Part shown: piece by piece, positions 4,634-24,319 of the stretch
Layout of the letters: the number at the start of each line of letters is the position of its first letter
How positions within the stretch are numbered: the first letter of the stretch is position 1
IMG/VR virus record: IMGVR_UViG_3300028829_005568
Direction: 5' to 3' (one strand)
Length of the DNA: 64,000 nucleotides
DNA from: a virus
Program-made: the position numbers and the translations under genes
The notes under the pieces: generated by a model
The model's database searches: none
What the model was told of the DNA's origin: nothing
Seen by the model: only the letters and a program-made list of their open reading frames with translations

Positions 4634-4635
4634 TC

Positions 4636-6596: not shown

Positions 6597-9326
6597 ATGG
6601 CAAATATATATACAAATTTAGCGTCCCATAGATCAACTTATGCTCCTACAGAACAGAAGATGCCTTTTCAAGCATATGCTGCAGTAGGGGCCCATCAACA
6701 ACAAAGAACTGATAAACTTCTAAAAGAAGCCAGTGAAATGGGATTGGATATAGATCCTATGAAATATGATGTTGATGAAACATCTAATTTATTAAAAGGA
6801 TTTCAAGAAGAACAACAAAATATAGTAGATAATTTTGATAACCTTTCTGATAATGATTTAGTTAATGAAGTTAATAAATTAAGATTTAAGAAGGCTATGG
6901 CAGGGAAACCTGGTACTCCAGAATATAATATAAACCAAAGGAATGCAATTCATACTAGTAATATTAAAAAAGCTACTACAGCTGCCAAAAAGGACTATAA
7001 TAAAACAGAATGGTTTAATTTAAATGCTGATTTAAATAGTAAGGAGTCAGGTAATAGCCAAAATGAAGATGGTACTTTTAATGAAGTGCCTGAATTAAAT
7101 TTTCAGGAGCATGTAGATGGTGCTACATTTACTAAACTAGGAAATGATATATTACTGAGAAAATCAAAAAAGATTCTTACACCAGAAAAAATAAGGATTG
7201 TAGAAGATATTGTAAGAAGTAGTAGTGAAAATGGGATTGATTTAGAACAGACTATGAGTTTTATAAAAAAAGAGGGAACAGTATCTGGGAATGAGTATGC
7301 TCAGTTATACTCTGATTTATTAAATCAATTAAATACTCCACAAAATAAAAAATCCTTATCAGATGAGGTAGACGCTGAGTATTATCAATACTTAAAACAA
7401 CGAAATAATTATTTACCTATAGAAGAACAACTAACTCCAGAAGGATTAAGAGATCAAGTTTTTTCTTATCAGCAAGGTGATATAGAAGACCCTAGTTTCC
7501 AAGGAGGACTAACTAGTCAAGAGTATGCTGATGAAAAACTAAAATCAAAAGTTGGAAGTATGGCGGATATTGCAACTGAGAGCACACAAGCTGGTGGAGC
7601 TATGGCTACTATACCAGGACAAGGAGGGGTAAATAAAGGGGGAAGTGATGAAGAAGAAGAAGAAGAACTAGCTAGAGTTTTTTATAATACAGAGCCAGTA
7701 AACTTATCTCCATCTGGTGATTTTAGTGTACAGGCAGCTGAAGCTTCTTTAAAAACTAAAAAAGATAAATTACAAATTTTAAAAGACGCAGCAGAAAAAA
7801 AACGTAATAGTGGTGAGGCTTATGGAATGAATAATGCTCAAAGAGATGAATATGTACGACTGAAAAAAGAAATAAATACTGATGAACTGTATTTAAGAAG
7901 TTTGGAACAAGATGTATATAAAAATCCTAAAGCAAGGAAATTAGCCATGCAAACTTTTATAGATCAATCTACTAAAGTTGATAAAAATAATAATCCTACA
8001 ATATGGGCAGCTTTTACCGGTGGCACAAATCCTTGGGACTTAGAAAAAGGCCCTTGGAATACTGGTAGCGATGGGACATATTTAAACACTGAAGACTTAT
8101 ATAAAAAAGATAAAGAAAAATATTTGGATTATTTTATGAGAAGAGCTCTTCATAGAGAAGAGCCTGTAGCAAGAGAATGGTTTAGATATTATACAGGATT
8201 AGGAACTAATAAATTTTTAGGAGATGAGACTGCAATTAAAGTACTTGGAAATAAGTTAAGAGAAATAATAGATGAAGAAGTTACTACTACAAATAACACT
8301 TATAAACCTTTAGTAATATCAGACAGTGAAATTGACCCTAAAAATAAATTTTCTTCTCCTGGAATAGTTTCTGAAACTAATAATAAAATAGCAAATTCAA
8401 TATCAAATAATCCTGCTGGATATAGAGTAGTAGGTGTGCAAGATGGAGAAGCTTCTATAGATTTAAATACTTTTATGACGAACCTTCAAAAAACATATGG
8501 AGTAGCATTTAAAGTACAAACAGAGATAGATGATGTTGGAATGTCTAAAGGTGCTAATTTAATAATTCCAAGAGAAGGGGAGGAAGCAGCAGCTATGGTT
8601 ACTTTAATACCTAGTCAAGGGCAGATGAGTAATGATGCATGGGATGATCTATTAGATCAGAAGACTCCCTATTGGAGAAAAGAAGATATGAAATATGGAG
8701 AAATGGCATATATATCTAACTTTTCAATAAAGATCCCTGTTACTAGTTTAGGTAAAGAATCTTCTAGAACATGGAATAATAATATAGAAGAAATGGCGAA
8801 TGGAATGTATGACCAGGCTTTAGGTTCTAAGCCAGGTCCAAGTAGGACTGATCTAATAAATGACGCTAGATTTATTAAAGCTAATTTAGCAGTAGGAGAT
8901 AAATTTGGTGGTGCTATTATGCTAGAACAGTCTCATGCTTGGCCACTTGAAAGTGAAATGATTAATGGTAAAAGAGTATATAATGAGGAGTCAGGAAAAA
9001 GTGAACCTGTTCCTATAGACTATTGGAGACATCCAACAAAAGGAGATATTCCTATATATATTAGAAAACATTCAGATAAGCCTATTAATAGTGAAATTTT
9101 TGAAGGTCCAGCTACTAGTGTTGCCCATGCAACACAGTTTGAAATATTAGATAATAATAAAGAAGTAATGACTGATAATCAAGGTAACCCTATGGTTGCA
9201 GGAAGTATAAGAGACCTGGAAGTAAAATGGTATGAATATTTAGGGCGTTTAGCGGTTAGGTTAAATATGAAAGATGAGTTTGTAGATAATTATGTAGAAA
9301 TGGACCCTAATTATACGGGAAAGTAA
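6597..9326 (+). CDS. Putative cargo/ejection protein (909 aa; about 1034 aa if frameshifted)
   Basis: Long ORF in the cargo cluster immediately upstream of the virion RNAP; ends ...ACG GGA AAG TAA. Confidence 0.6.
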   Translation: MANIYTNLASHRSTYAPTEQKMPFQAYAAVGAHQQQRTDKLLKEASEMGLDIDPMKYDVDETSNLLKGFQEEQQNIVDNFDNLSDNDLVNEVNKLRFKKAMAGKPGTPEYNINQRNAIHTSNIKKATTAAKKDYNKTEWFNLNADLNSKESGNSQNEDGTFNEVPELNFQEHVDGATFTKLGNDILLRKSKKILTPEKIRIVEDIVRSSSENGIDLEQTMSFIKKEGTVSGNEYAQLYSDLLNQLNTPQNKKSLSDEVDAEYYQYLKQRNNYLPIEEQLTPEGLRDQVFSYQQGDIEDPSFQGGLTSQEYADEKLKSKVGSMADIATESTQAGGAMATIPGQGGVNKGGSDEEEEEELARVFYNTEPVNLSPSGDFSVQAAEASLKTKKDKLQILKDAAEKKRNSGEAYGMNNAQRDEYVRLKKEINTDELYLRSLEQDVYKNPKARKLAMQTFIDQSTKVDKNNNPTIWAAFTGGTNPWDLEKGPWNTGSDGTYLNTEDLYKKDKEKYLDYFMRRALHREEPVAREWFRYYTGLGTNKFLGDETAIKVLGNKLREIIDEEVTTTNNTYKPLVISDSEIDPKNKFSSPGIVSETNNKIANSISNNPAGYRVVGVQDGEASIDLNTFMTNLQKTYGVAFKVQTEIDDVGMSKGANLIIPREGEEAAAMVTLIPSQGQMSNDAWDDLLDQKTPYWRKEDMKYGEMAYISNFSIKIPVTSLGKESSRTWNNNIEEMANGMYDQALGSKPGPSRTDLINDARFIKANLAVGDKFGGAIMLEQSHAWPLESEMINGKRVYNEESGKSEPVPIDYWRHPTKGDIPIYIRKHSDKPINSEIFEGPATSVAHATQFEILDNNKEVMTDNQGNPMVAGSIRDLEVKWYEYLGRLAVRLNMKDEFVDNYVEMDPNYTGK

Positions 9327-9700
9327 ACGGGAGCCCTGCGCCTAGCCCAAAGACAGTTAATGGATATAAACCTTTATCAGAAATAAAAGGACTTACAATA
9401 GATTCTCAAGTATCTAATAGTTCTATAAATGAAAATATTTATGATGATTTTGAAAATTTATCTAATAATTTTCCTGGATTAATTGTAACTTCGGCAACTA
9501 GAAGTCAGAAGAAACAGGATGAATTAGTAGCAGCAGGTAAAGGTGTGAAGAACTCTAAGCATATAGAAGGTAAAGCATTAGATTTTAAACTTAATGATTC
9601 TTCTAAAAAATTACTTAATTTATCTAAATCAGAATTAACAGCCTACGGTATAGAAGATGTTTTAATGCATCATAATCACGTACATATAGAATATATATAA
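9311..9700 (+). CDS. Start-less Zn peptidase M15 (LAS-type) domain; predicted frameshift extension of 6597..9326
   Basis: Hand translation: ...GKVNGSPAPSPKT...PGLIVTSATRSQKKQDELVAAGKGVKNSKHIEGKALDF...HNHVHIEYI*. Has SxxR, H-x6-D (9560-9583) and HxH (9677-9685). No ATG/GTG/TTG upstream of the domain in this frame. Confidence 0.8.
   Translation, partial: LYGKVNGSPAPSPKTVNGYKPLSEIKGLTIDSQVSNSSINENIYDDFENLSNNFPGLIVTSATRSQKKQDELVAAGKGVKNSKHIEGKALDFKLNDSSKKLLNLSKSELTAYGIEDVLMHHNHVHIEYI
9317..9323 (+). other. Predicted -1 programmed ribosomal frameshift site G GGA AAG
   Basis: Same heptamer as the lambda gpG/gpGT frameshift, in the correct phase, directly before the TAA at 9324-9326; the -1 frame stays open for 125 further codons. 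Confidence 0.8.
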
Positions 9701-9703
9701 TTT

Positions 9704-12700
9704 ATGGGAACACAGCAAGAAGAAGAACTAACAGAGATAGAACAAGCTATTAAACATGAAAGACAGCTCAGAGGGGAGTCTGATATAGTAAATAGACCTG
9801 TAACTACAGATAGAGATAGTGTATCTAGGAGTGATATAAATACAGATATGTTAGAGGCTCTTAATTATGAGAGTAATATTAATAAAATAGCATCAACTAC
9901 ATATAGTGACTTTTCTGATGTAGGTAGTATTTCTAGTGAAGAACTAGAAGAGTATGAAAATTATCTACCACAAGGTATTGCTGATTTAGATAAAGCTAGT
10001 ATTGAAGAACTTGTATCTGATGCTCAAGGTGTTAGTGGTAAATTAGGGTCAGGTGTTACAAGATTAGGTGCTACAGCTCTTACTAAGTTTGGAGAAGGTG
10101 TGGCTTTTACAGGGGCACTGGCTCTTCAAGCTCTTAATCCAATTAATTGGGGAGAAGATTATACCGCTAAAGTAGTTGGTAAAGCTGCTGATAATGCTAT
10201 CTCAGAAGCTTTTAGTATGGCAGAAGATTGGGTAAAAGAAGAATTAGCCCCTATATATGAGTCCCAAGCTTATAAGAATGGTAACTGGATAGAGCAAGCA
10301 GGTACTGTAGATTTTTGGGCAAGTGATTTTGTAGATGGATTAGCTTTCTTACTTAGTTCTTATGGCGGTGCAGCACTAGCAGGTAAAATTGGTATGGCGG
10401 GTAAAGTTGCTGCAGGATTGGGTAAAACAACTGGAATAAAAAATATAGCTGCTTTAGAAAAAGTATTAGGGCATGCAGGTACTACAGCTTTTATTTCTTC
10501 GGGAGAAGCAATGTTTGAAGCTAAAGAAATTAAAGATGATCTTTTAAGAAGAGGAGTAAATCCTAGGGTAGCAGCGGCTAAAGCTAGGGATGCCTTTTTA
10601 TTAAACATGGCTGTACTTAGTGTTTCTAATTCTGTACAACTTGGTGCTATGAAAAAAGTTTTAAATCCTTCTGGTTCTGGTAAAATTAAAGGACTGGGAA
10701 TTAAAGGGGGAAAACTTGTTGATACATCTAAAGATCTTAAAGGTTTTAATAAATATTTAAAAGGAAAAACAGGGGCAGTAGGTAGAGCAATAGGCCTTAA
10801 TGTTGCCTCTGAAGGTTTCTATGAAGAGAATGCACAAACTGCTATTCAAAACTTAATGACAGATTATGGTACTGGTAAAGAAATAGGTAATGTATTTGAT
10901 GCACTTTCTGAATTACCTGGCGGCATGGTAGATAATTTAGGAACTAATGAAGGACAAAAAGCTATTTTTCTTGGGTCTATAATAGGAGCTTTAGGTGGTG
11001 GAGCTGGGCAATTACGTCAAAGTATAGGAGAAGAGCAGGCAAGAGATAATTTCTTAAAAGCTATTGATGACCTTGGTAGCTCCATGTCAACAGATAAAAG
11101 TTTATATAAAAGACGTGTAACAAAAGAAAAACCAAAAGGTAGTATAGTATATGAAGAAGGCTCTCCAGAAGCAGCTGAAGCTTATGGGGAAATTATCAGA
11201 CATGATGATAAAAAAGTTGTAGTTAAGACTAAAGAAGAGTTTGAGAGACAAAAAGATGAAGAATATGAAGTATCTGAATTAATATATGATAGTGAAGGAA
11301 ATCCACAATTAGACCATGCAGCATATGCTAAAATATATTCTGATAAAAAAGTAAATCAAGACTTAGATTATTTAATAGATGCTGCATATAAGAATAAAGA
11401 TTTTGCTACTTATAGAGTACTAAAAGGAGAAAAATTTCAAAGACTTGCGTATGAATATTATAATGCGGGATTAGGTAATGAATTTTTAAAACTTCTAGAA
11501 GAGTATAAAACTTATGATGCTGAGACATTAGCAGAAATGGGCTATACAAACATGGAAGAATCTGAAGAAGGTGCTTCTAAAAGTCATTCCCAAATTATGG
11601 ATGACTATATAAAAGATGCTAAAGAGTTAAAGAAAATATATGATACTATAGAAAAAACTGTAGTAAATACTGGATTTAGAAAAAAAGAACTAGATGGAAA
11701 ACTTACTGCCTCTAAAACAATTACAGCTCTTCGTAAAAAAGAATTAAAAAATCTTGCTGCTAGAGAGTATTTTGTAAATAAAGAACTAAATATAGCTAGA
11801 AGAAAAAGAACAGATCTTTTACTTAAAGGTGAGGCTTCTAATCTTGCTACTCAAGATAATGAATTTAAGACTAGAATATCTAAATTAGATGATGATATTT
11901 TAGATTTAGTAGCTAAAAAGAAAGCATCTAAAGATAAAACAGAAATAGCACAATTAAGAGAAAAAGAAAAAGAAGCACGGGCTCTTAGAAGAGATCTTAA
12001 AAAGAAATATAAAACATTCCTAAGAAGATTTGGAGAAGAAGTAGATATGCTTTATACCGCTCCAGGACGTAAACAAGGCTATGTAACAGAATCTGTTGAA
12101 GGAATGGAAGAGGAGAAAAGACTTTCTCCTGTAGCTAAAACAGAACTCAATGCAGAAGAAGTAAAAATAGCTGAGCTAGCTAATGTCAGAGACTTAATGC
12201 AAAGAGAAGTTAATAAATTACTAGATCCAACTAAAGGGTATAAATACTATATTGATAATGTACTTAAATTAAATAAACTTAAAACAGCAGGTAGAGTAAC
12301 TAAAATGTCTATAAGAGACCTGCTGATAGGTACTTATGATGATTATATTGCATATGAAGAGGGAAGAGTTAAAAGTGCTAGAGTAAAACAAAGTTTAGAC
12401 CAAAAAAATGAAGAGGATTTTGATGATGCTGTACGTCAACGTATTGCGGCTCAGGAACCTATTGTAAGTATTATACAAGATATATTAGAACTAAAACCAC
12501 CTTTATCTAGAGATACTATTAGTTTAGTAGAGAGACAATTGAGGATGGATATTAGGGATGCTAATACTGAAAGATTAGATTTAACTTCAGGATTAGAAGT
12601 CCGACTTAACTATCTACAAGAAGAGCTGCAATATGCTTTAGATGCAAGTGATTATGAAAACATTGATATACTTACTCCCCAAGTTAAAGAAACTGAAGAT

Positions 12701-15700
12701 CAACTTTCAGAATTAATAGATAATGAACAATATAGAGAACTATCTAGAAGAGTTGAGGGACTTAAAGAGTATCAAGGCAAAGTAAGGGATCTTAAATTAT
12801 ATGAAAAAAATACAGCAAACTTAACAGACCAAGAAATTAAAGTTAAAATAGCTAAAGATTTATATAGTAGTTTAGTAAAAGAAATAAAACAAAATTTTGA
12901 ACTTAATGAAGAGTATGACAATGAAGAAGAAATAAATATAGCTATAGCTGTATTAAGAAAATTAGGAAATATTTTTAAAGAAAGAGAGGGCTTTGAGTCT
13001 TTCTCTAAAGAAATTGAAGAAGAGATAGATTCTCTTGTAGCTATTAGAAAAGAAATAAAGAAAAGAAAAGAAGATAAAGAAAGAAAACAAACAGAAATTT
13101 GGGAAAATTATACTAAAAAAGCATGGGGCTCTTTTGGAATTTATTTTGAAATAGATGAAGATGGTAAAGTAGATATATCTTATTCTGCAGAAGAGGAAAA
13201 AGTAATTAAAATACTTAAAGACAATATAGAAGATTTTGAAGAAATAATAGATTCTGCGTCAAAAGATAATATGGCCCCTATTTATGCAGATATATTATTA
13301 CAAAAAGCTAGAAATTTAGTAAATGAAGATGCTAAAGTAAACAAAGAATTAAAAGAAGAATTAGATTCTTTATATAAAATAAAGTTTAAAAAATTAATTG
13401 ATATAGACTTAAAGAAAGGATTCTTTTATAATGGTAAAAAAGGAAGACTAGCTAAAACAATGCTTACTAAAGATCAAGCTAGAGAATATTTTGCATCTCC
13501 TGAAAGATTTACAGATGAGTTAATTATCCTACTACAAGATACAGGAAATGGTGAAGCTGAATATGACTTGACTAAAGGGAGTGCTATAGATACTTTCATA
13601 AAAGATAAAGACATAATAAACCTTAAAAAGAATCTATTAAAAGAAATTGAAGAAAAATCTGATGTATCTGAAGAATTTCCTGAGTCTACCAGACAAGCTA
13701 TTTATGATGATATTTTAGCACATGAAGCAATAGTAGATACATATGCATTAAGGAATGAAATATTTGATACTTCTTATGATATAGCTGATGAAATAGAAAC
13801 AGAAATAATATCATTAAATCAAGATAAAAAAACTCCTGCTCCTACAGCTCAACAAGTTATAGCTCTAAGGGCACTAATTAAATTTATATCTAAACCTATT
13901 GATACTCTTAATAACTTTGACGGTTGGGCTTATTTAAAAGGATTTGCTGGTACAGGTAAAACTAATGTTACTTTAAAATGGGCGATTAATATACTAGGAA
14001 TTAAAAATACAGAAAGTGAAATTTATGCTTTTGGCCATACTGATAGTTCTACTAAAACAGTTATTAATAGCATTAATTCTTTAAGTACAGCTTCTTTAGA
14101 AAGCCTGCTTAAAGAGGGAGTTCCTGAAGTTACTAAACTTATTGTTATAGATGAAGTAGGAGCTATTTCAAAAGAACAACTTATAGAAATAAGTAAAAAA
14201 ATATCAGATATTAACTCAAAGAGAGAGGTAGAAGATAGAGTTAAAGTAATTACTTTAGGGGACCCTAATCAAAGAACAGTTACAAGACAACTTAAAGCAC
14301 CTATTGATCAAATGCTTCTTCTCCCTGGTTCTTCTAACATGGTTAATATACAGCCATTAACTGTTCGCTATAGATCTAATGTTGGACCGGTAGTTTCTTT
14401 TCAAGATCTTTTTATAGGACAAAGGGATAATATGTTAGAGAGAGAGCCATTAGTTACAAAATCTAATACTCCTGATATAATGAATGAGAGTAATGAATTT
14501 CAACCTTTAGGTGTATTTGGTACTAATAGTTTTGAAAAAAATATTACTAGAGTCCTTAAAGCAAGAGAAGGAAGTAAAACAAGTAAAGCTGTTATTGTAA
14601 ATGATAAAGATGTAGAGTATTATAAACAATTACTTAAAGATGCTGGGATTACAGATGTAGAGGTATTAGATGTATATAATGTTCAAGGACGTACAATTGA
14701 TGAAGTGTATATTAACCTTAAAAAAGATAATTCTTATTTAACAGATGTTTCATATAATACTGATATATACACTGCTACTTCTAGAGCAGCTAAGTTTATT
14801 TATATAGGAGAAATACCTAGTAAAAATGAGTTAGATATAGAACTAAATACTGACAGTAAAGAAGCTTCTAAAAAAATAGCATCCCGTAGAAGGGAATATG
14901 AAGAACAATTAGATAGAGATCTAGGAGTAATAAATAAATACTACAAAGAAGTAATTCCAGATACAGGTACAGAAGAAGGAGAAACAGTAGAAGAAGAAGA
15001 AACAGAAAAAGGGGAAGAAGGGGAAATTGAAATTGATGAGAATGGAGAAACTGCAGAAGAAAAAGCAATAGAAGTAACTAATGATGACCCAGAAAATATT
15101 GATGAATATGATGTAAAAGATATTGAAGTAGAAATAAAAGATGAAATACCATTAACAGAAAATGAAGTAGACCATATAGTGGCTTTTCCTGAAAAAACTG
15201 CTACTGGTCCTATAACAGAAGAAGGAGAGGAAACTATTAAAGGACTAGAAATAGGAGATAAAGTAGAATATGTACTAACTAAATGGCTTGATAAAAAAAC
15301 AAAAGAATATGTACCTAGTATAGTAGTAGTTAAAAAAATTAGTGAAGGCACTTATAGAAGAATAGCCGTCATAGGTAACGAGGATATAATAAATAGATTA
15401 CCTGAAGACATTGCTAAAATTTTATCTAAAGCAAAAGATAATATAGGGATATCAGATAATTGGGTAGAATTTAGCTCTGTAAGTGGGGATATCCTAACAA
15501 CTGAAGATAAAATAGGCTATAATAAAAAAGAAGGTGAAGTAGCTCCTATTTATACTGGTACTATTAAAAGAACTCCCACTGGTTTAAAATATATTTATAA
15601 TGGTGGAAATCCTGAAATACTAACTAGAAGCGTACTACAAAAAATAGTTAAAAAATTTAAGGAAACTTTTTTTAGTAATGAAGAAAAGCCTGGAGAAGTA

Positions 15701-18700
15701 CGTTTAGGGCCCAATGGGGCAAGGATTAGAATATTTACTAAAAAAGATGTAAAAGAAATAGCTGATGAATTTGGAATAAAAATACAAAGAGGAGTACCTT
15801 ATTTATATTTTAAAAACCCCACTCTTAGTAAAGGACCAAAAAAAGTAAAGCCTCAATTTATTAGACTTAGTCCTAGAAAAATTAATACTAAAGTGCATCC
15901 TGATATTACAGGACCTATTTTATCTTTTATAAAAAATGGTAAAATATTAGAAAGTATTATAGGGTCCCCAATTCATAGAATAGGATTTCCGGCTTTTAAT
16001 GAATTAATTAATGAATTAGGTAAAGGAAATGTTGAAAAAGCTAAGGCAATAGCTAAGTCCAGTAAAATGAAACATTTACTAAATACTAATACTGGTAAAT
16101 ATGATATTTTAGAAGATGAAGAAGTATTAAAATTAGCTAAAATTTTATATGAGTTAGCTTATTATGATACTAATAATATTAAAGAAATTGAAGAAAATGA
16201 TTGGGTACAGCATTCAGACCCTACTACTCCTTTTCTCAATAAAAAAGGTAATCCTAAAAGACAATTAGTAGAAACAATTAATGGGGATAAAGTTAAATTA
16301 AAAGGAATTGACGAACTATTTGATATAAAAGATTTATCATTACAAAATACAGTTAAACCAGGACCTCTTCAAAGAATTATTAATAGAATAGCTAAATCTA
16401 ATTTAGTTGCCAATGATCATCTATTAAGACAAGAAAAAGTAATAGACTCTAAATTAATATTTACTGGGAAAGCATTACTTACATCTGCACAACCTAGAGC
16501 ATTTAATATTAAGAGTGTAAGTGGACAAGCTTATATTACTAGAATGGCTAAAAGACTTGGGGTTTCTAGAAAAGAAGCTGAGGAAAAAATAGGGGATGAA
16601 CTATTAGCTAGACTGGGAGAACACTGGACTTTAGATAAAATGGAAGAAGTATTTTCTTTTGATAAAGATGGAAACTCTAATACTAATGGTGGATTTGGCT
16701 TAAGAATTCCTATACCTAAATTAGCAGATGGACTTAATCTTACAGGAAAAGATTGGAATAATAGACAATATGGGTTAGTTCCTAAATGGAAGAAGGCCCA
16801 TTTATCTGACGAACAGTTGGAAAGATATTTTGAAAATACTTTTGAAGAAGTAACTCCTAATAATATTGTAGTTACAATAGATCCTTCAAATAAAAATACT
16901 AAGGACAGTCATGAAGAAATTAAAAATAATACACCACCTCCTCCTGAAGTAGACCCAGAAGATCCTTTTGAAGACTTTGAAGACCCAGATGAAGGCATTA
17001 GAACAGCTTCTAGAGAGGCTGTTAGAGAACCTGGGAGAATAATTTCTAAGGAAAAAGCAATTGCTTATCTTAAAAAAATACTTCCTAGTGCCACAGAAGA
17101 TCAACTTAAATTTATAGATAGCTATGAATTAATGATGAAAAATGGAGGTATAGAAGCATGGGGAGCATGGTCAAAGGGTATTATAGAATTAACAAAAGAG
17201 GGTACTACTAAAAAAATACTACGCCATGAGATATTTCATGAAGTGTGGAATAGGTACTTAACAATAGACGAACAATTAATTCTTACAGAAGCTATATTTA
17301 ACATATATGGGCCCATGTCTGAAGAACAGCTTGAAGAAAAGTTAGCTGAATTATACCAAGATAGAAATTCTTTTAAAGGAATAATTAAACAAATTTTTAA
17401 TAGGATAGCTCAATTTTTTAATTTTTATGCCAGGAATAGGAGAACAATAGATAGATATCTTGATGCCATAGATTCTGGTAAATACACTGTCCCAATTAGA
17501 GCAGTAGAAGATATACAATTTGATAGACTTAGTTCTAAAATACGTCAAGATTTTAAAACTATGGAAAATTATAAAATAGCTAAAAATTTCTTTTTTACAG
17601 AGATGTATAAACATACTAGTAAGTATGATATAAAAAATGGAAAACTTGTAGATAAAAAAGTAGACCCAAATAATCCGGCTACTTTTCCTAAAACTCATTT
17701 AGAAGCTTTCTTAGCAGTATTTGCTAAAGCTGAAGCTATGGTAATAGCGGGGGAACGTTTAAATGGGGAATTTACAGGAGCAACTAAAGAAATAAGAGAA
17801 AGAAAGAAAAATGCATATACAGCACTTTCTAAAATGGTTGCATATAGCCCAGGAGGAGGCTCTAAAGCTACAGTCTTTACTAGTATGATTAAAGATGCTT
17901 ATCCTAATTATTCTTTTAAACCAGGACAAACTATAAAAGATATTAAAAAACTTAGAGAAAAATCAGAAGATGAAACTAAGAAAACTGTAGAACAAAGTTA
18001 TGAGGATTTAGAAAATAATGATAGCATGTCTGGTATATTTGAAGACCATATACAAGAAGGTGACCAAGTTAATCAAGAGAAAAAGATTTCTCAATCTGCT
18101 AAAGACTTTGTATCACTATTAATTCCTATTACAAAACAAGGTAAAATTCTTCCTAGAGTTAATCCTAGGTATGCATATATCAGATTATTGCAAACTATGC
18201 CTGGTATAAATTGGAATAATCTTGATACAGCTAAAAATCAGCTTGAAAGTTCTTTTAGAAAAGGAAAAATAGAATCTGATATTACAACTAAGACTATATA
18301 TGACAATGTAATTAAACTTATAAGTAAAGCTAGAGCACAAAAAGTATTTAGTGATACAGGAGGAAGAATTAATATACCTACAGTAGGTAAATTTTTATCT
18401 ACAAATGTTTATGTAGAAGGAAATATTACAATAGAGAGCTCTAGTTATCCTACTAATTTTAAATTTTTTGAAGCAATATATAATAAATCTTCTATAAAGG
18501 ATTATAATGCTATTGTAGGGATGTATAATATAGCAGATGCTAAAAATACATTAAGAGAATTAATAGTAGGAACATCTTCTCAACGAAGAAAAAATGTAAA
18601 ATTAGGTACTGAAACTTCTACAAAAGATAAATTAACTCAACGTTATATTTCACTTAGAGAATATGGATTTGTAGATACTGCCACTGTTAAAATAGAGCAT

Positions 18701-21700
18701 ATAATAGGAACAGTATTTAGCTCTGAAGAAAACAGAATAAAATATATCCAAAAATTAAATAAAATTAAAAGCTATAAAAAATGGGAAACACAGAGAGATA
18801 ATATACAAAATATACTTAGTGAATTAGGTATATTAAATAAATCAAATATTGTACTTAGTGAGTCTGAAACAGGGCAAATTATTGATGCTTTTAGTGGTAT
18901 TATACGTAGATATTCTGACTATAAAAAAGCAGGACGAGCATTAAGTGACAGTGTAAATGATATAAGCATATTAGTAGATGTTATTATAGATAATACTGAT
19001 AATATTAGAACTTCTAATTATACTGCAGGCGATGGGACTAGAAGATATATGTATATGTTAAGTTCTCGTGCTATAGATACCTTAAGAACTTTTGCAAAAG
19101 GGAATTCATGGATGACTAAACCTTCATTTTTTGATAACCTTTATTTTGAAAATAATATGTATCTTAATAAGGACTTTCCTGCTAAAATACACAATTATAT
19201 AGACCATGATTCTATAAAAAATAAATTTACAGGAAGAGCCACCCCTTATAAAGGAGAAACTAAACAAGAATGGATACAAAGAAATTTAATTTATGGTTTT
19301 GGCTCTGTTCTCAGAAATAGTGGAAATGTAAGAAAATATGCACAACAATTTTGGACTCCTTCTGATAAGCCTAATATTATAGGAGCAGAAGTAACTGCTT
19401 TAAATGAAAAGCAACTTAAGAAAGCAATAAGATTAGCTATTTATCAAGAATCTGCAAGACCAGAAGAAAGTGACATTTCAAATTACTCAGAAAATAAAAC
19501 TAAATCTTATTTAACAGGACTAGATACAGCACTAGACCCTTCAGTATCAGATATTGCTTTTGATATGTTAAGTGCAAGAGATAAAGCTGAAATAGAAAGA
19601 AGAACACAAATAGTATTTAATAGTTTAAATAAGCAAACAGAAGAGCTTTTAGATTATATTATAAAAGAAAAAATAAAATTAAGTGCTAGTACTATAAATT
19701 ATATTTATAAAAATAAAACAGATTTATTTGGAGAGTACCCTGCTCCTATAATTAAAAAAGAAGGAGAAGAGGTAATTGAAGAACTAACTGAAGAAGAAAT
19801 ATTAGATAATATTAAAAAAGTAAACTCTAAAGAATTTATATTACCTGATAGTATACATAAAAAAGGTGCAGATTTAAATAAATACAGGGAGCATTTAAGA
19901 CCTTTTATTGACTTATTTGTAAAAAATAATTATGTTAATGGGTATTTTTTAAATCAATTAGTAGCTGGAGACCAGTCTTTTTATAAAAATTCTAATAATG
20001 TTATTAAACGTATGTCCATGGTTTTTGCCCAGGGTACTAAAGGTTTTGTAAATGAAGAGATAGGTATGAAAGAAACCTTTACAGTGGCTGTAGGTAAAGA
20101 TATTAATGAATACTTAGATAAAGAAGAATTTGCAGAGTTCAAACAAATATTAGGTAAAGCATTTGATATATCTGATGGAGCTGGATTTATTCTCCCTGAA
20201 AGAAAAAGTAATATTGAATTAGGTTTTGGAGAATCTAGCAATATAACTTTAATTCAAAAACCTGTTTATTGGGGTATAGATGATACAGGAGTACCAAGAG
20301 GTATGAAATACTCTACTGTAGAATTAACAGATGATTTAGTAGAAATGTTTCCTAGACTTTCTATACTTAGGGACCAAATGAGAGGAGTAAAATGGAATGA
20401 AAAGACTAAAAAATATGATAGAATAAGAAATAGAGAATTAATAGCTGATGAATTTGTTTTTGGAAGTGCATTTAAAGTAGGAGCTCCAAATAGTCTAGCT
20501 GTAATGGATGAAGAAATTGGAGCGCATACTATAGAAGATAGTAATATAGTTACTTTAAAAAATGAAAACTATAGAATACAGCAGCAAGCATATCATGATG
20601 TGACTGAACAATCAGTGTCACAGCCAACACAGTTAAATTATTTCCTTAACTCTAATGGTAAAAATAATGAGCAAGCTAATGAAATATATAATGACTTGAC
20701 CTCTTTAATGGAAGCTAATATGTTGCTTTCAGATAGAGAATTAAGATTTTCTGGAAAAGAAAGTAAAATTACTCCTGATGCTCTAAGAAAAGTATTATTA
20801 AGATCACTTGAAAGTAATCCTACTTCTGATAATAATAGAATACATGAATTCCTTAGTGCTAAAACTAGTACAGGAGAATGGATGGCCAGTCTAGATACTC
20901 CTTTTATGATTAAAAAAATCATAACAATGTTTTCAAGTACTGTTTCTAAAAATACTGTAGAAATAAAGTTTGATGGAGCTAAATTAAGCTTGCAAACTGC
21001 CTATGGGGTAAAGGGAAAGGAATTAAAAGGAGTACTAGAAGAAAGTGGATTAGAAGAGCCTAAATGGAGAAATGAACAGGGATATGCAGAAGTATATATG
21101 CCTGATATGTATAAAGGAAAATTTAATGTAGGAGATATAGTTCATGCAGGTGATAAAGTACATAATAAGTTTCTTAGTTTCCGTATTCCTTCTACAGAAA
21201 TGCACTCTGCTTTACCTATTATGATTAAGGGATTTTATCCTACAACAGAAAAAAATGAAAATGTCATTATTGCACCTAAAGAAATTGTTTTCTTTCATGG
21301 TAGTGATTATGATATTGATGCATTATATGTAATAAGACATAGTATATCTTCTAATGGTATTAAAGGACTGACTAAAAAAGGAAAAATAGCCGGATTTAAA
21401 GGAGAAAAATTAGATGAAGAGATAATATCTAAAATAGATAAAAGGTTAGCAGAAAAACTAACTATAATTAGAAGTAGTAAGAAATATACTCCCCAGGAAC
21501 AAGGACTTGCAGGAGATGAATACCAAAAATTATTAGTATTTAAAAGTGAAGTACTAAAGAATAAAATTCTAGAACAATTTTTAGAAATAGTTACAGCTAA
21601 ACGTAATGAAAAAGATATGTTTTCTCCTATATCTATGGATAGATTTAATGGAACATCTAAAGAAGAGTATACAGATACTATTTTTGATATGCTTAGAAAA

Positions 21701-24319
21701 CTTTATAAATATAACTCTAATGAAGACCTTTATTCTCCTAGAGACTTAAATAATATTTTAGACCAAGCTAATTACTATAGAGATAATATGGCAGGTAAAG
21801 ATCTTACTGGAGTATTTGCTAATAGTGCTAAAGCTATTTTCTATAGTATACAAGCAGCTCGTAATTATGCTAAGGATAAAAATGCTACACCTATTTTAAG
21901 AGAAGATTATCACATTAATCTAAATGGTGGAGTGTATAGTCAAATGTCTTTAAAAGAACAAAAAGTAAAAGATGGTAAATTAATAGATAATGAAATAGAA
22001 GTTAATGTTATTAAAGATGAAAATGGTAAAATAATAGAAGTTATTAAAGATACTCCTACTATTAATCAAACTATTGATATGTTAATTAATGCTGCTATTG
22101 ATAATGTTAACGAACAAATTCTTTCTATTATTAATACTACTATTAAAACTAAAGATGTTTTAATAGGGTTAGTAAGTTTAGGGATTCCTTTGACTACTGC
22201 TACTAAATTAATGCTGCAGCCTGTTACTTTTGCAATAGGAGAAAATAGTAATTTTAAAGTAGGTATTGATCTTGAAAATAGTATAATTAAAGACGCTATT
22301 AGAAGAAAAATTATTGAAGAAAATAAAAAAGAAGAAGGAGAAGAAGAAGTAGAAGAAAAAGATAAAAAAGGAAAAAAGGGAAAAAAAGTAGAAGAAGTTA
22401 TTGATTTAGATAAATATATTGAAGAAAATAAAAGAGATATAACAGATAAAGTATTAGAAGAATCTTTAACTAATTATGAAAATTGGCAAAATAGATTTGA
22501 AAACCTTACTGCTCAACAATTAGTAGACCAGTTAGAAATATCTAATATACTTGAAAAAGCTGATAAAATAGGTAGTACTCTTGGAAAGGCCTCTAAAATG
22601 CTAAAAAGAATACAACAATTACCAGTACTTTATCCAGAAATCCAAGAAGGTATAGATAATAATGATGATATCTATGAAGAATGGAATAATTCTACTAAAG
22701 ATTATACTAAAGATGAGAACGGCAATAGAATTTTAAGTGAAAATTGGGTATTTACAAATACTGATTATATGAATATTCCTCATATAAATTATTCTTTTAA
22801 AATTTTAAGAACATTAAAAAGAAGAATACAAGAAATTTTTCTAACTCATAATAAGCAATTAGTTGAGTTCTCAGATAGCTTTAATAATAGATCTACTTTA
22901 CCTACTTTATATTTAGATACTAATTATAGTGTAACATCTAACTCTAATAAAAATTCTGAAATAATAAGAGATGAGTTTGTTAAATATGTGCTTAATGGAC
23001 TAACATTTAAAGTAGGAAATACTAAAGTAGATTTAAATACTGTAAAAGAAAAAGACTATGTAATAAAAGTAGATGAAGAAGGTAACCCTAAAGAAGATGA
23101 GGATACAACTGTAGTTACTGGTACACAAGCCTGGATAGAAAGATTTGCAGATAGAGTAATTAAGTTACAAAGATTGTACCCTTCAAATACATTTTTAAAT
23201 AACATACAAGTAAAACATGATTGGAAATTAGAAAATGGAGCACATAGTAGATATTTATTATTTACTAATCTAGGGACTATGGAAAATGAAGATATCGAAG
23301 CTATAATGGAAGACTTTGAGAAACTTAATGAGGACCCTAATGGCTATAATGAGATACAAACAGATTTCTTAAAATATGCTATAGTAGCAAATGGATTAGG
23401 GTTTAGTTCACAAAGTTACTCTACAGTATTACCTCCTAAATTATATGAGAATTTATTTAAAGCATTAGATTCTAAGTTAGGTAATATTTTTAATACTGAA
23501 AAAAGTTCTACTTTATATTTAGAAAGATTAAGATCACATTTTGGGATACAGCTAGCTTTAAATAATATGGATGCTATGAAAAATAGTAATTATGATATTG
23601 AAGAACAATCTAATGGAAAATGGTATGGAGAAATTGGTGGAGTAAATTTTGATATAGAGATAAAAAAAGATATAGAGACTCCCGCAAATAATCCTACTAA
23701 ATTTATTAAATTATTTAATAGTACTCTTTATGTAAGAGTATTACATACTGAAGAAAGTTCATACTACCAGAAAATAGGAAAAGGTAATAATCAAAAATTT
23801 TATTATTATTCTAGAAAAGTAGAAACTGATGGGTATGATTTAAATAGAGTTTTTGATACTTCAGTACAGGTTGATAAAGTATTAAGTAATAATCCTAAAA
23901 ATATTAGAAAAAGAGTAGTAATTGATGGTGTGTGGAAAACTGAAAGTTACACTTTAGATGATTACCAAAAAATTATTCTTGACCCAAGTAATTTCTTACC
24001 TTTACCCGTAGGAAGTGTTATTAGAATGGTTAATTATAGTGATAAATCTAGAACATATGCTAGAGACTATAAGATAAATAAAGTAAGAACAACAAAAGCC
24101 GAAGATATTTATGAAGATATTTCAGAAGATGCTATAATTATTCACTATAGTTTAGAGCCTACTGAAATAGATTATTCTATTGCTTTACCTAAAAATATAG
24201 TAGATCCTGTAGAAGGAAGAAATATAAAAGAAAATGATCCATTAGCTGTATCCAAAGAAGAAAAAATAAAAGAAGATAAAGCTAAAAAAGATTGTGCTAA
24301 AAAAGGAAAAAAGAAATAA
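9704..24319 (+). CDS. Giant virion-packaged RNA polymerase polyprotein (crAss-like vRNAP) with SF1 helicase and zincin-like domains
   Basis: 4871 aa. Catalytic GSDYDID (DYDID at 21305-21319) preceded by FRIPST. Walker A GFAGTGKT (13940-13963), Walker B IDEVG, GDPNQ, VQGRTID, YTATSRA. HEIFH at 17225-17239. Confidence 0.85.
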   Translation: MGTQQEEELTEIEQAIKHERQLRGESDIVNRPVTTDRDSVSRSDINTDMLEALNYESNINKIASTTYSDFSDVGSISSEELEEYENYLPQGIADLDKASIEELVSDAQGVSGKLGSGVTRLGATALTKFGEGVAFTGALALQALNPINWGEDYTAKVVGKAADNAISEAFSMAEDWVKEELAPIYESQAYKNGNWIEQAGTVDFWASDFVDGLAFLLSSYGGAALAGKIGMAGKVAAGLGKTTGIKNIAALEKVLGHAGTTAFISSGEAMFEAKEIKDDLLRRGVNPRVAAAKARDAFLLNMAVLSVSNSVQLGAMKKVLNPSGSGKIKGLGIKGGKLVDTSKDLKGFNKYLKGKTGAVGRAIGLNVASEGFYEENAQTAIQNLMTDYGTGKEIGNVFDALSELPGGMVDNLGTNEGQKAIFLGSIIGALGGGAGQLRQSIGEEQARDNFLKAIDDLGSSMSTDKSLYKRRVTKEKPKGSIVYEEGSPEAAEAYGEIIRHDDKKVVVKTKEEFERQKDEEYEVSELIYDSEGNPQLDHAAYAKIYSDKKVNQDLDYLIDAAYKNKDFATYRVLKGEKFQRLAYEYYNAGLGNEFLKLLEEYKTYDAETLAEMGYTNMEESEEGASKSHSQIMDDYIKDAKELKKIYDTIEKTVVNTGFRKKELDGKLTASKTITALRKKELKNLAAREYFVNKELNIARRKRTDLLLKGEASNLATQDNEFKTRISKLDDDILDLVAKKKASKDKTEIAQLREKEKEARALRRDLKKKYKTFLRRFGEEVDMLYTAPGRKQGYVTESVEGMEEEKRLSPVAKTELNAEEVKIAELANVRDLMQREVNKLLDPTKGYKYYIDNVLKLNKLKTAGRVTKMSIRDLLIGTYDDYIAYEEGRVKSARVKQSLDQKNEEDFDDAVRQRIAAQEPIVSIIQDILELKPPLSRDTISLVERQLRMDIRDANTERLDLTSGLEVRLNYLQEELQYALDASDYENIDILTPQVKETEDQLSELIDNEQYRELSRRVEGLKEYQGKVRDLKLYEKNTANLTDQEIKVKIAKDLYSSLVKEIKQNFELNEEYDNEEEINIAIAVLRKLGNIFKEREGFESFSKEIEEEIDSLVAIRKEIKKRKEDKERKQTEIWENYTKKAWGSFGIYFEIDEDGKVDISYSAEEEKVIKILKDNIEDFEEIIDSASKDNMAPIYADILLQKARNLVNEDAKVNKELKEELDSLYKIKFKKLIDIDLKKGFFYNGKKGRLAKTMLTKDQAREYFASPERFTDELIILLQDTGNGEAEYDLTKGSAIDTFIKDKDIINLKKNLLKEIEEKSDVSEEFPESTRQAIYDDILAHEAIVDTYALRNEIFDTSYDIADEIETEIISLNQDKKTPAPTAQQVIALRALIKFISKPIDTLNNFDGWAYLKGFAGTGKTNVTLKWAINILGIKNTESEIYAFGHTDSSTKTVINSINSLSTASLESLLKEGVPEVTKLIVIDEVGAISKEQLIEISKKISDINSKREVEDRVKVITLGDPNQRTVTRQLKAPIDQMLLLPGSSNMVNIQPLTVRYRSNVGPVVSFQDLFIGQRDNMLEREPLVTKSNTPDIMNESNEFQPLGVFGTNSFEKNITRVLKAREGSKTSKAVIVNDKDVEYYKQLLKDAGITDVEVLDVYNVQGRTIDEVYINLKKDNSYLTDVSYNTDIYTATSRAAKFIYIGEIPSKNELDIELNTDSKEASKKIASRRREYEEQLDRDLGVINKYYKEVIPDTGTEEGETVEEEETEKGEEGEIEIDENGETAEEKAIEVTNDDPENIDEYDVKDIEVEIKDEIPLTENEVDHIVAFPEKTATGPITEEGEETIKGLEIGDKVEYVLTKWLDKKTKEYVPSIVVVKKISEGTYRRIAVIGNEDIINRLPEDIAKILSKAKDNIGISDNWVEFSSVSGDILTTEDKIGYNKKEGEVAPIYTGTIKRTPTGLKYIYNGGNPEILTRSVLQKIVKKFKETFFSNEEKPGEVRLGPNGARIRIFTKKDVKEIADEFGIKIQRGVPYLYFKNPTLSKGPKKVKPQFIRLSPRKINTKVHPDITGPILSFIKNGKILESIIGSPIHRIGFPAFNELINELGKGNVEKAKAIAKSSKMKHLLNTNTGKYDILEDEEVLKLAKILYELAYYDTNNIKEIEENDWVQHSDPTTPFLNKKGNPKRQLVETINGDKVKLKGIDELFDIKDLSLQNTVKPGPLQRIINRIAKSNLVANDHLLRQEKVIDSKLIFTGKALLTSAQPRAFNIKSVSGQAYITRMAKRLGVSRKEAEEKIGDELLARLGEHWTLDKMEEVFSFDKDGNSNTNGGFGLRIPIPKLADGLNLTGKDWNNRQYGLVPKWKKAHLSDEQLERYFENTFEEVTPNNIVVTIDPSNKNTKDSHEEIKNNTPPPPEVDPEDPFEDFEDPDEGIRTASREAVREPGRIISKEKAIAYLKKILPSATEDQLKFIDSYELMMKNGGIEAWGAWSKGIIELTKEGTTKKILRHEIFHEVWNRYLTIDEQLILTEAIFNIYGPMSEEQLEEKLAELYQDRNSFKGIIKQIFNRIAQFFNFYARNRRTIDRYLDAIDSGKYTVPIRAVEDIQFDRLSSKIRQDFKTMENYKIAKNFFFTEMYKHTSKYDIKNGKLVDKKVDPNNPATFPKTHLEAFLAVFAKAEAMVIAGERLNGEFTGATKEIRERKKNAYTALSKMVAYSPGGGSKATVFTSMIKDAYPNYSFKPGQTIKDIKKLREKSEDETKKTVEQSYEDLENNDSMSGIFEDHIQEGDQVNQEKKISQSAKDFVSLLIPITKQGKILPRVNPRYAYIRLLQTMPGINWNNLDTAKNQLESSFRKGKIESDITTKTIYDNVIKLISKARAQKVFSDTGGRINIPTVGKFLSTNVYVEGNITIESSSYPTNFKFFEAIYNKSSIKDYNAIVGMYNIADAKNTLRELIVGTSSQRRKNVKLGTETSTKDKLTQRYISLREYGFVDTATVKIEHIIGTVFSSEENRIKYIQKLNKIKSYKKWETQRDNIQNILSELGILNKSNIVLSESETGQIIDAFSGIIRRYSDYKKAGRALSDSVNDISILVDVIIDNTDNIRTSNYTAGDGTRRYMYMLSSRAIDTLRTFAKGNSWMTKPSFFDNLYFENNMYLNKDFPAKIHNYIDHDSIKNKFTGRATPYKGETKQEWIQRNLIYGFGSVLRNSGNVRKYAQQFWTPSDKPNIIGAEVTALNEKQLKKAIRLAIYQESARPEESDISNYSENKTKSYLTGLDTALDPSVSDIAFDMLSARDKAEIERRTQIVFNSLNKQTEELLDYIIKEKIKLSASTINYIYKNKTDLFGEYPAPIIKKEGEEVIEELTEEEILDNIKKVNSKEFILPDSIHKKGADLNKYREHLRPFIDLFVKNNYVNGYFLNQLVAGDQSFYKNSNNVIKRMSMVFAQGTKGFVNEEIGMKETFTVAVGKDINEYLDKEEFAEFKQILGKAFDISDGAGFILPERKSNIELGFGESSNITLIQKPVYWGIDDTGVPRGMKYSTVELTDDLVEMFPRLSILRDQMRGVKWNEKTKKYDRIRNRELIADEFVFGSAFKVGAPNSLAVMDEEIGAHTIEDSNIVTLKNENYRIQQQAYHDVTEQSVSQPTQLNYFLNSNGKNNEQANEIYNDLTSLMEANMLLSDRELRFSGKESKITPDALRKVLLRSLESNPTSDNNRIHEFLSAKTSTGEWMASLDTPFMIKKIITMFSSTVSKNTVEIKFDGAKLSLQTAYGVKGKELKGVLEESGLEEPKWRNEQGYAEVYMPDMYKGKFNVGDIVHAGDKVHNKFLSFRIPSTEMHSALPIMIKGFYPTTEKNENVIIAPKEIVFFHGSDYDIDALYVIRHSISSNGIKGLTKKGKIAGFKGEKLDEEIISKIDKRLAEKLTIIRSSKKYTPQEQGLAGDEYQKLLVFKSEVLKNKILEQFLEIVTAKRNEKDMFSPISMDRFNGTSKEEYTDTIFDMLRKLYKYNSNEDLYSPRDLNNILDQANYYRDNMAGKDLTGVFANSAKAIFYSIQAARNYAKDKNATPILREDYHINLNGGVYSQMSLKEQKVKDGKLIDNEIEVNVIKDENGKIIEVIKDTPTINQTIDMLINAAIDNVNEQILSIINTTIKTKDVLIGLVSLGIPLTTATKLMLQPVTFAIGENSNFKVGIDLENSIIKDAIRRKIIEENKKEEGEEEVEEKDKKGKKGKKVEEVIDLDKYIEENKRDITDKVLEESLTNYENWQNRFENLTAQQLVDQLEISNILEKADKIGSTLGKASKMLKRIQQLPVLYPEIQEGIDNNDDIYEEWNNSTKDYTKDENGNRILSENWVFTNTDYMNIPHINYSFKILRTLKRRIQEIFLTHNKQLVEFSDSFNNRSTLPTLYLDTNYSVTSNSNKNSEIIRDEFVKYVLNGLTFKVGNTKVDLNTVKEKDYVIKVDEEGNPKEDEDTTVVTGTQAWIERFADRVIKLQRLYPSNTFLNNIQVKHDWKLENGAHSRYLLFTNLGTMENEDIEAIMEDFEKLNEDPNGYNEIQTDFLKYAIVANGLGFSSQSYSTVLPPKLYENLFKALDSKLGNIFNTEKSSTLYLERLRSHFGIQLALNNMDAMKNSNYDIEEQSNGKWYGEIGGVNFDIEIKKDIETPANNPTKFIKLFNSTLYVRVLHTEESSYYQKIGKGNNQKFYYYSRKVETDGYDLNRVFDTSVQVDKVLSNNPKNIRKRVVIDGVWKTESYTLDDYQKIILDPSNFLPLPVGSVIRMVNYSDKSRTYARDYKINKVRTTKAEDIYEDISEDAIIIHYSLEPTEIDYSIALPKNIVDPVEGRNIKENDPLAVSKEEKIKEDKAKKDCAKKGKKK

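Follow-up and report, generated by a model that had tools for sequence, protein, structure and literature searches.

A probable −1 frameshift site that would join an M15 peptidase domain to a putative cargo protein of a marine crAss-like phage

We present here an analysis of a 64,000-nucleotide (nt) stretch of DNA, IMG/VR record IMGVR_UViG_3300028829_005568, from an uncultured marine crAss-like phage. The whole stretch is referred to as the window, and coordinates are 1-based on it. The subject is the 3′ end of a gene for a putative virion cargo or ejection protein of 909 amino acids (aa), which lies directly before a giant RNA polymerase gene. This locus is probably a programmed −1 ribosomal frameshift site from which two proteins are made, one of 909 aa and one of 1034 aa that ends in a zinc peptidase domain. 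A first-pass annotation, made from the sequence without database searches, had read the locus as a −1 frameshift that adds an M15 peptidase domain to the 909-aa protein; the comparative checks reported here support that reading.

Slippery site and the reading frame beyond it

The 909-aa gene closes with the zero-frame codons ACG (9315), GGA (9318), AAG (9321), and TAA (9324), and the heptamer G_GGA_AAG therefore stands in X_XXY_YYZ phase and touches the stop. It is the same heptamer as that of the lambda G/GT −1 site. A stop placed immediately 3′ of a slip site is the classical “shifty stop” arrangement that Weiss and colleagues are said to have described in 1987. Across the 18,921 codons of the window’s 43 genes, X_XXY_YYZ motifs are in phase at 0.93% of positions and consist mostly of A/T runs, and GGGAAAG is in phase only twice. 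Three heptamer positions alone (9311, 9314, and 9317) could serve a −1 shift into the downstream frame, and the actual site is the last of these. In-phase heptamers with at least 60 open −1 codons after them number two in the window.

The other of these two is T_TTA_AAA (window 4621 to 4636), where a 701-aa gene ends CTT TTA AAA ATA TAA and the −1 frame is stop-free up to the ATG of a 649-aa gene at 4636. This junction is kept in a related scaffold (L013), as is the entire surrounding region. T_TTA_AAA is common, occurring in phase 25 times in the window, and nothing specific favors frameshifting there.

Reassignment or readthrough of TAA was considered for the 909-aa gene and rejected: TAA is the most frequent stop in the window (24 of 43 genes), and the zero frame past it does not encode the M15 domain. 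Bypassing between the two copies of ACGGGA (9315 to 9320 and 9327 to 9332) was also rejected. The copies are 12 nt apart, so a hop would remain in the zero frame, which soon stops.

The −1 frame is stop-free from 9311 to 9700 (129 codons), a run with a chance of about 1e−5 given the base composition. No open reading frame (ORF) of at least 40 aa lies on the minus strand at this locus. The gaps between genes of the plus-strand block are 9, 2, 11, 377, and −26 nt, the 377 nt at this locus being the outlier, and in every assembly gene callers report the frame merely as a 51-aa or 87-aa fragment. The frame contains none of ATG, GTG, TTG, CTG, ATT, ATC, and ATA between 9311 and 9383. Its first near-cognate codon is the ATA at 9383 (codon 25), within a conserved [PV]LS.I.G motif, and its first ATG, GTG, or TTG is the GTG at 9545 (codon 79), past the SATR motif.

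By sequence and structural modeling, the domain in this frame belongs to the M15/LAS kind. Its translation matches Pfam PF08291 (Peptidase_M15_3) at 31.2 bits, above the cutoff of 23.2 (E value, 2.5e−7), and the copy in the related contig L011 scores 26.1 bits. Weaker matches were to endolysin PHROGs and, weakly, to the NCBIfam MepK L,D-endopeptidase. In an alignment of homologues (A6), R60, H80, D87, H119, and H121 are invariant, and the invariant patterns T..A.R, S.H, GKA.D, and H.H match the Arg, H-x6-D, and H-x-H elements of LAS zinc peptidases, the SATR motif included. The AlphaFold2 model built from A6 has a mean predicted local distance difference test score (pLDDT) of 89.9; residues 1 to 11 (VNGSPAPSPKT) are disordered, and the fold runs from about residue 12, with its first strand at residues 15 to 17. 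Foldseek matched the model, with template modeling (TM) scores of about 0.5 to 0.6, to Hedgehog-N, the phage endolysin LysECD7, the L-Ala-D-Glu endopeptidase ChiX, and VanX, and further to the Streptomyces Zn DD-peptidase (1lbu), VanY, and LdcB. A sequence profile search of the PDB with the domain also matched Hedgehog-N.

The lack of start codons bears on a rival explanation, in which the M15 domain would be a small protein of its own, produced from a noncanonical start such as the ATA at 9383 or by reinitiation after the TAA at 9324 to 9326. An Ile codon (ATA or ATT) does occupy the aligned position in both of the lineages compared below, and the likely hosts may not rely on Shine-Dalgarno sequences, so that start rules may be looser. 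However, no canonical or near-cognate start precedes 9383, and the Ile there is a conserved residue of the domain motif rather than an extra start. Because the first predicted strand lies upstream of this ATA, a start there would truncate the fold and delete that strand. The segment from 9326 to 9382 keeps its frame over a 3-nt indel and is conserved from the heptamer on, and a separate protein leaves unexplained why a canonical heptamer is kept in phase with rare codons. On this evidence we regard separate synthesis as unlikely.

A GC-rich stretch begins 4 nt past the heptamer. It is the only 21-mer with at least 17 G/C in the window, which has 30% GC overall, and its linker codons include the rare GGG (12.6%), AGC (5%), and GCG (2.8%). 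The sequence GGGAG-CCTGCGCC is kept in L011 and L013. The stretch is perhaps a stimulator of frameshifting. An Rfam search gave no match, no stable hairpin was found on the plus strand, and the plus strand between 9326 and 9704 has no promoter-like or terminator-like site.

The first-pass annotation had described most of these elements, and its description stands: the in-phase GGGAAAG right before the stop (confirmed by the codon readout from 9315 to 9326), the −1 frame open from 9311 to 9700 with no start before the domain, the complete M15/LAS motif set (SATR, H-x6-D, and HVH), and the GC-rich stretch after the stop in AT-rich DNA. The end of the frame 3 nt ahead of the polymerase start was likewise reproduced (stop at 9698 to 9700, ATG at 9704), and the profile match to Peptidase_M15 that it had suggested looking for was obtained above the cutoff.

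Table 1. Features at the junction of the 909-aa gene and the giant gene
Feature	Coordinates	Strand	Basis or remarks
Zero-frame gene; 909-aa putative virion cargo/ejection protein (P0002), short form	6597..9326	+	ORF list, translation; C terminus ...NYTGK-TAA
Slippery heptamer G_GGA_AAG, proposed −1 shift site (GGA to GGG, AAG to AAA)	9317..9323	+	Sequence; identical and in phase in L001, L003, L004, L011, L013
Zero-frame stop TAA, abutting the heptamer 3′ (“shifty stop” layout)	9324..9326	+	Kept in every relative with this layout
−1 extension, 125 codons plus TAA, giving the proposed 1034-aa long form; junction ...YTGK|VNGSPAPSPK...	9323..9700	+	Translation; open in all six related assemblies
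GC-rich stretch, encodes the GSPAPSP linker in the −1 frame; candidate frameshift stimulator	9328..9348	+	17 G/C in 21 nt
Predicted folded LAS/Peptidase_M15 Zn-peptidase domain	9356..9697	+	Pfam PF08291, alignment A6, AlphaFold2, Foldseek
Putative catalytic/Zn residues	Arg 9500-9502; His 9560-9562; Asp 9581-9583; His 9677-9679; His 9683-9685	+	
4871-aa giant gene, crAss-like virion RNA polymerase (vRNAP) homologue	9704..24319	+	DYDID at residue 3868; tblastn

Conservation of the junction and distribution of the domain

A protein search found P0003, also of 909 aa and 92% identical to the window’s protein, on contig L001, where the gene shares 87% nt identity with the window and the same stop, heptamer, and open −1 frame are present. 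Contigs L003 and L004, from other samples, are nearly identical to the window and have the same layout without an indel. The junction is identical in L001, L003, L004, L011, and L013, which differ in sample and assembler, and contigs from three more studies span it with no letters missing or added. The lack of any indel in these independent assemblies and further contigs shows that the layout does not stem from faulty assembly. A sequencing or assembly error that hides a plain in-frame fusion was considered solely because short homopolymers sit at the junction; no support for it was found, and we regard it as hardly credible. All metagenomes carrying the phage are marine or seawater samples. 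Close relatives were absent from INPHARED (blastn and tblastn), scans of IMG/VR with single proteins and with alignments gave nothing useful, and a GTDB genome scan gave nothing.

Relatives of the 909-aa part were few in an exhaustive HMMER search, for which the query was the read-through protein with one X at the break: P0005 (27% identity) and P0006 (23 to 32% identity). The gene for P0006 (836 aa), on contig L011, ends TCG GGA AAG TAA and is followed by a 129-codon −1 M15 frame without a start and then by a giant gene. L013, a TARA scaffold, is a second assembly of the same lineage and has the same heptamer, TAA, and frame. Between the two lineages, the giant proteins share 33% identity over the N-terminal 1500 residues compared. 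Nucleotide identity is about 40% in the body of the upstream gene, rises to 70 to 97% from CGGGAAAG, at the heptamer, and drops just after the ATG of the giant gene. Comparison of window 6597 to 9800 with L011 543 to 3530 gives a mosaic: similarity is high over roughly the first 45 residues of the 909-aa protein, at the gene junctions, and across the M15 block, and the bodies of the genes retain only about 40% nt identity.

In the window, the heptamer takes its first G from the third position of ACG (1.5% of Thr codons), and in the second lineage from that of TCG (0.6 to 1.2% of Ser codons; 0.6% in L011). Each is the rarest codon of its amino acid; the amino acid differs between lineages and the nucleotide is kept. 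The linker differs by a 3-nt indel, and the heptamer and domain stay in one frame. No internal start is conserved: the −1 frame reaches its first canonical start at 9545 in the window and at codon 43 in L011.

This comparison also bears on transcriptional slippage, in which RNA polymerase would add or omit a base in the mRNA. Slippage of this kind would give the same products and would explain the conservation of the site equally well. Known transcriptional slippage sites are homopolymer runs of about 6 or more, and the runs at this junction are merely G3 and A3. Moreover, X_XXY_YYZ phasing matters for ribosomal slippage only, and the phase is kept in both lineages. We therefore judge an origin in transcription very improbable.

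In more distant phages, a homologous domain (36 to 44% identity, A6) lies in frame at the extreme C terminus of proteins of 778 to 948 aa (P0008, P0009, P0011, P0012, P0014, and P0015). P0015, on L015, ends 2 nt ahead of a 5418-aa gene. The part of that giant gene that was fetched has no significant similarity to the window’s; the synteny of L015 is one of gene size and order only. P0008 is on a 63-kb contig (L006) that also carries CrAss_Ring and crAss_MUZ genes. Its gene lies two genes upstream of one for a vRNAP homologue that aligns with the core of the window’s polymerase, including the GSD[YF]D.D motif. Judged by their sequences, these proteins show that a large protein with a linker and an M15 domain is a natural product in this gene block. 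They are positional analogues of the 909-aa protein and not proven orthologues. One long-read contig (L002, P0016) was left out as evidence, being of 2× depth and riddled with frame breaks; its positions 5250 to 6190 encode a protein like P0014 and P0015 with an M15 end, split over frames by apparent sequencing errors. L012 was dropped as a chance match to the search pattern in unrelated GC-rich DNA.

The first-pass annotation had named two kinds of relative as informative, those with a conserved heptamer and −1 M15 frame and those with in-frame fusions. Both exist, the former in the diverged L011/L013 lineage and the latter in the more distant phages, in one case directly before a giant gene. 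The extra base that it took as the mark of a plain fusion is found in none of the contigs and assemblies of the several studies.

Several observations weigh against the frameshift. The heptamer with a −1 M15 layout was found in only two lineages, and the M15 block, which is highly similar in nt sequence although the phages are otherwise very divergent, may have been exchanged recently by recombination; if so, the evidence for the heptamer from the two lineages is not fully independent. Single-sequence folds of the RNA downstream of the heptamer were no better than shuffled sequences (z-scores from +1.4 to −1.0). The RNAalifold consensus, from just two lineages, was weak (−7.5 kcal/mol) with two compensatory pairs, and one pair of its 7-bp outer stem is broken in the window. 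Homology between the body of the 909-aa protein and the bodies of the in-frame fusion proteins was sought and found no support (hhalign E values, 0.46 and 0.48); an N-terminal resemblance noted by eye was dropped, and a hidden Markov model (HMM) of the N-terminal motif, run over the window’s ORFs, did not find P0002. Finally, L014 carries a stand-alone M15 gene of 149 aa with its own ATG (314 to 763), so the domain need not be fused, a point that also favors its synthesis as a separate protein. The first 32 nt of that gene lie, in the +1 frame, within the 3′ end of the preceding gene, which itself has an in-phase A_AAA_AAG whose −1 frame is closed immediately by a stop.

Purifying selection on the domain is also only weakly measurable. 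The ratio of nonsynonymous to synonymous substitution rates (dN/dS) between the lineages is 0.57, not strongly below 1, with 18, 14, and 20 differences at the three codon positions, and in a simulation 7.7% of random substitution placements left the −1 frame open. These values would suit a decaying remnant of an in-frame fusion, broken by a 1-nt change close to the junction and adjoining the heptamer by coincidence. The existence of in-frame fusions in other phages fits such a history, as does P0005 (on L005), where the M15 domain is absent. A remnant is nevertheless quite improbable. The M15 block, at 83 to 97% nt identity between the lineages, is the best-conserved part of the locus, the functional genes on either side being at about 40%; an open frame and intact catalytic residues are seen in three distinct variants; the length of the indel is divisible by 3; the heptamer is preserved through rare codons; and AlphaFold2 gives the domain a confident fold.

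Proposed mechanism and genomic context

Under the frameshift reading, most ribosomes on the 909-aa gene would terminate at the TAA, and a fraction would slip back by one base on the heptamer, so that the Gly tRNA in the P site would re-pair with GGG instead of GGA and the Lys tRNA in the A site with AAA instead of AAG. The slip would be aided by the adjacent stop codon and perhaps by the conserved GC-rich stretch. Slipped ribosomes would read through a linker rich in Pro and Ala and a LAS-type (Peptidase_M15) zinc peptidase of 114 residues to give the 1034-aa form. By analogy with the phages that have in-frame fusions, this long form would be packaged alongside the short form as virion cargo and would cut peptidoglycan stem peptides locally during ejection of the cargo proteins and the giant RNA polymerase. 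We infer that the slip takes place, at a rate that would set a low ratio of long to short form, that both forms would be present in the virion, and that the peptidase would be active, cleaving the cell wall at entry.

The giant gene downstream had tblastn matches to phi14:2 g066, annotated “Catalytic RNA polymerase subunit,” and to putative RNA polymerases of crAss001-like phages. The −1 M15 frame and the giant gene are in one reading frame, with only TAA TTT before the ATG (9698 to 9706), and the same is seen in L011. Ribosomes that finish the long form would stop 3 nt before the giant gene start and could thus couple the translation of the two.

The 909-aa protein had no match in Pfam (including the crAss_CARGO models), PHROG, or NCBIfam, and a language-model feature-space lead to crAss_CARGO2 was weak (0.90). 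The packaged and ejected cargo proteins of PhiCrAss001, C1 (gp45) and C2 (gp46), are encoded immediately ahead of its polymerase genes (Bayfield et al. 2023, PMC10172136). The 909-aa protein is here called a putative cargo or ejection protein because its gene directly precedes the vRNAP gene. The label “virion ejection protein” given in the first pass is thus retained as far as gene position goes, and the protein lacks a match to a crAss cargo family.

Other genes in the window include those for a P22-like portal, a family A DNA polymerase, and a protein with an ART-PolyVal (ADP-ribosyltransferase of polyvalent proteins) domain. The last is an 811-aa protein at window 83 to 2518, and a weaker, sub-threshold ART-PolyVal match lies inside the giant gene of L015 (10065 to 18062). 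After the window’s giant gene follows a 1599-aa gene, listed from a GTG and overlapping the end of the giant gene by 26 nt (24294 to 24319).

Significance and comparison with known systems

Searches of the literature turned up no account of recoding in crAss-like cargo genes, and none of a frameshift through which a virion or ejected protein gains a peptidoglycan hydrolase. A recent study of N4 ejection proteins states that a peptidoglycan hydrolase is needed and that the ejection proteins of N4 are without such activity. We suggest tentatively, with slightly less than even confidence, that the heptamer, stop, GC-rich stretch, and M15 domain form a portable recoding cassette, which moves among divergent marine crAss-like phages, docks on the 3′ end of the cargo gene before the giant polymerase gene, and sets about one or a few peptidase copies per virion. 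If so, no recoding event would have been described before in a Crassvirales-type cargo gene, and no earlier frameshift would be known by which an ejected virion protein acquires a catalytic domain. An M15 peptidase on a cargo protein, joined by plain fusion or by frameshift, is a candidate answer to how crAss-like phages breach the cell wall, and the frameshift would fix the ratio of armed to unarmed cargo copies. Since gene callers systematically miss the M15 domain, annotation of marine crAss-like phages should check such “gaps” for recoding.

Counterparts by gene position are C1 and C2 of PhiCrAss001, which are likewise encoded just before RNA polymerase genes; they are of 60 to 90 kDa, are found in capsid and tail, and are ejected first (PMC10172136). 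They differ in that the same paper mentions no peptidoglycan, peptidase, lysozyme, or frameshift for them. The in-frame M15 proteins (P0008, P0009, P0011, P0012, P0014, and P0015) resemble the proposed long form in having a C-terminal M15 domain after a flexible linker and the [PV]LS.I.G motif, and in being located in the gene block before the giant or vRNAP gene. They are plain fusions, and so every copy carries the enzyme, unlike what is proposed for the window’s locus.

Among recoded phage genes, the tail-assembly-chaperone frameshift of lambda gpG/gpGT, reportedly characterized by Levin and colleagues in 1993, is comparable, and frameshifts of this type are said to be conserved in the tail chaperones of double-stranded DNA phages (as reportedly surveyed by Xu, Hendrix, and Duda in 2004). 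Both loci have a −1 shift near the end of the upstream ORF, a short major and a C-terminally extended minor form, and no strong downstream structure evident. They differ in that the T-part extension of lambda serves as an assembly factor and both products are absent from the finished virion, whereas here an enzyme domain would be placed on a putative packaged cargo protein, and in that here the stop codon directly adjoins the heptamer. In T7, the capsid protein 10A/10B is a structural protein with a C-terminal extension made by frameshifting, and Dorscht and colleagues reportedly found in 2009 that capsid and tail proteins of Listeria phages are extended in the same way. As proposed here, one gene gives two virion proteins in a fixed ratio, the longer with an extra C-terminal module. 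Those extensions are noncatalytic, being short tails or Ig-like decorations, whereas the extension here would be a complete LAS-type Zn peptidase.

Cell-wall hydrolases on virion proteins are represented by T7 gp16, an ejected protein with a lytic transglycosylase domain, and by lactococcal Tal, which exists with and without its lytic domain. Tal proteins carry C-terminal peptidoglycan hydrolase domains (PMC6115969). As in the proposed long form, the hydrolase in both cases is covalently attached to a large structural or ejected protein and acts locally at entry. The enzyme class differs, being an M15/LAS peptidase here and a transglycosylase or M23 peptidase in gp16 and Tal. So does the way in which the forms arise, since gp16 and Tal are in-frame fusions and the two forms of Tal are produced by proteolysis, whereas the two forms here would come from recoding. 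Frameshift-made C-terminal extensions of structural proteins and hydrolase domains on ejected or tail proteins are thus known separately; the locus described here would combine both and is not a new category.

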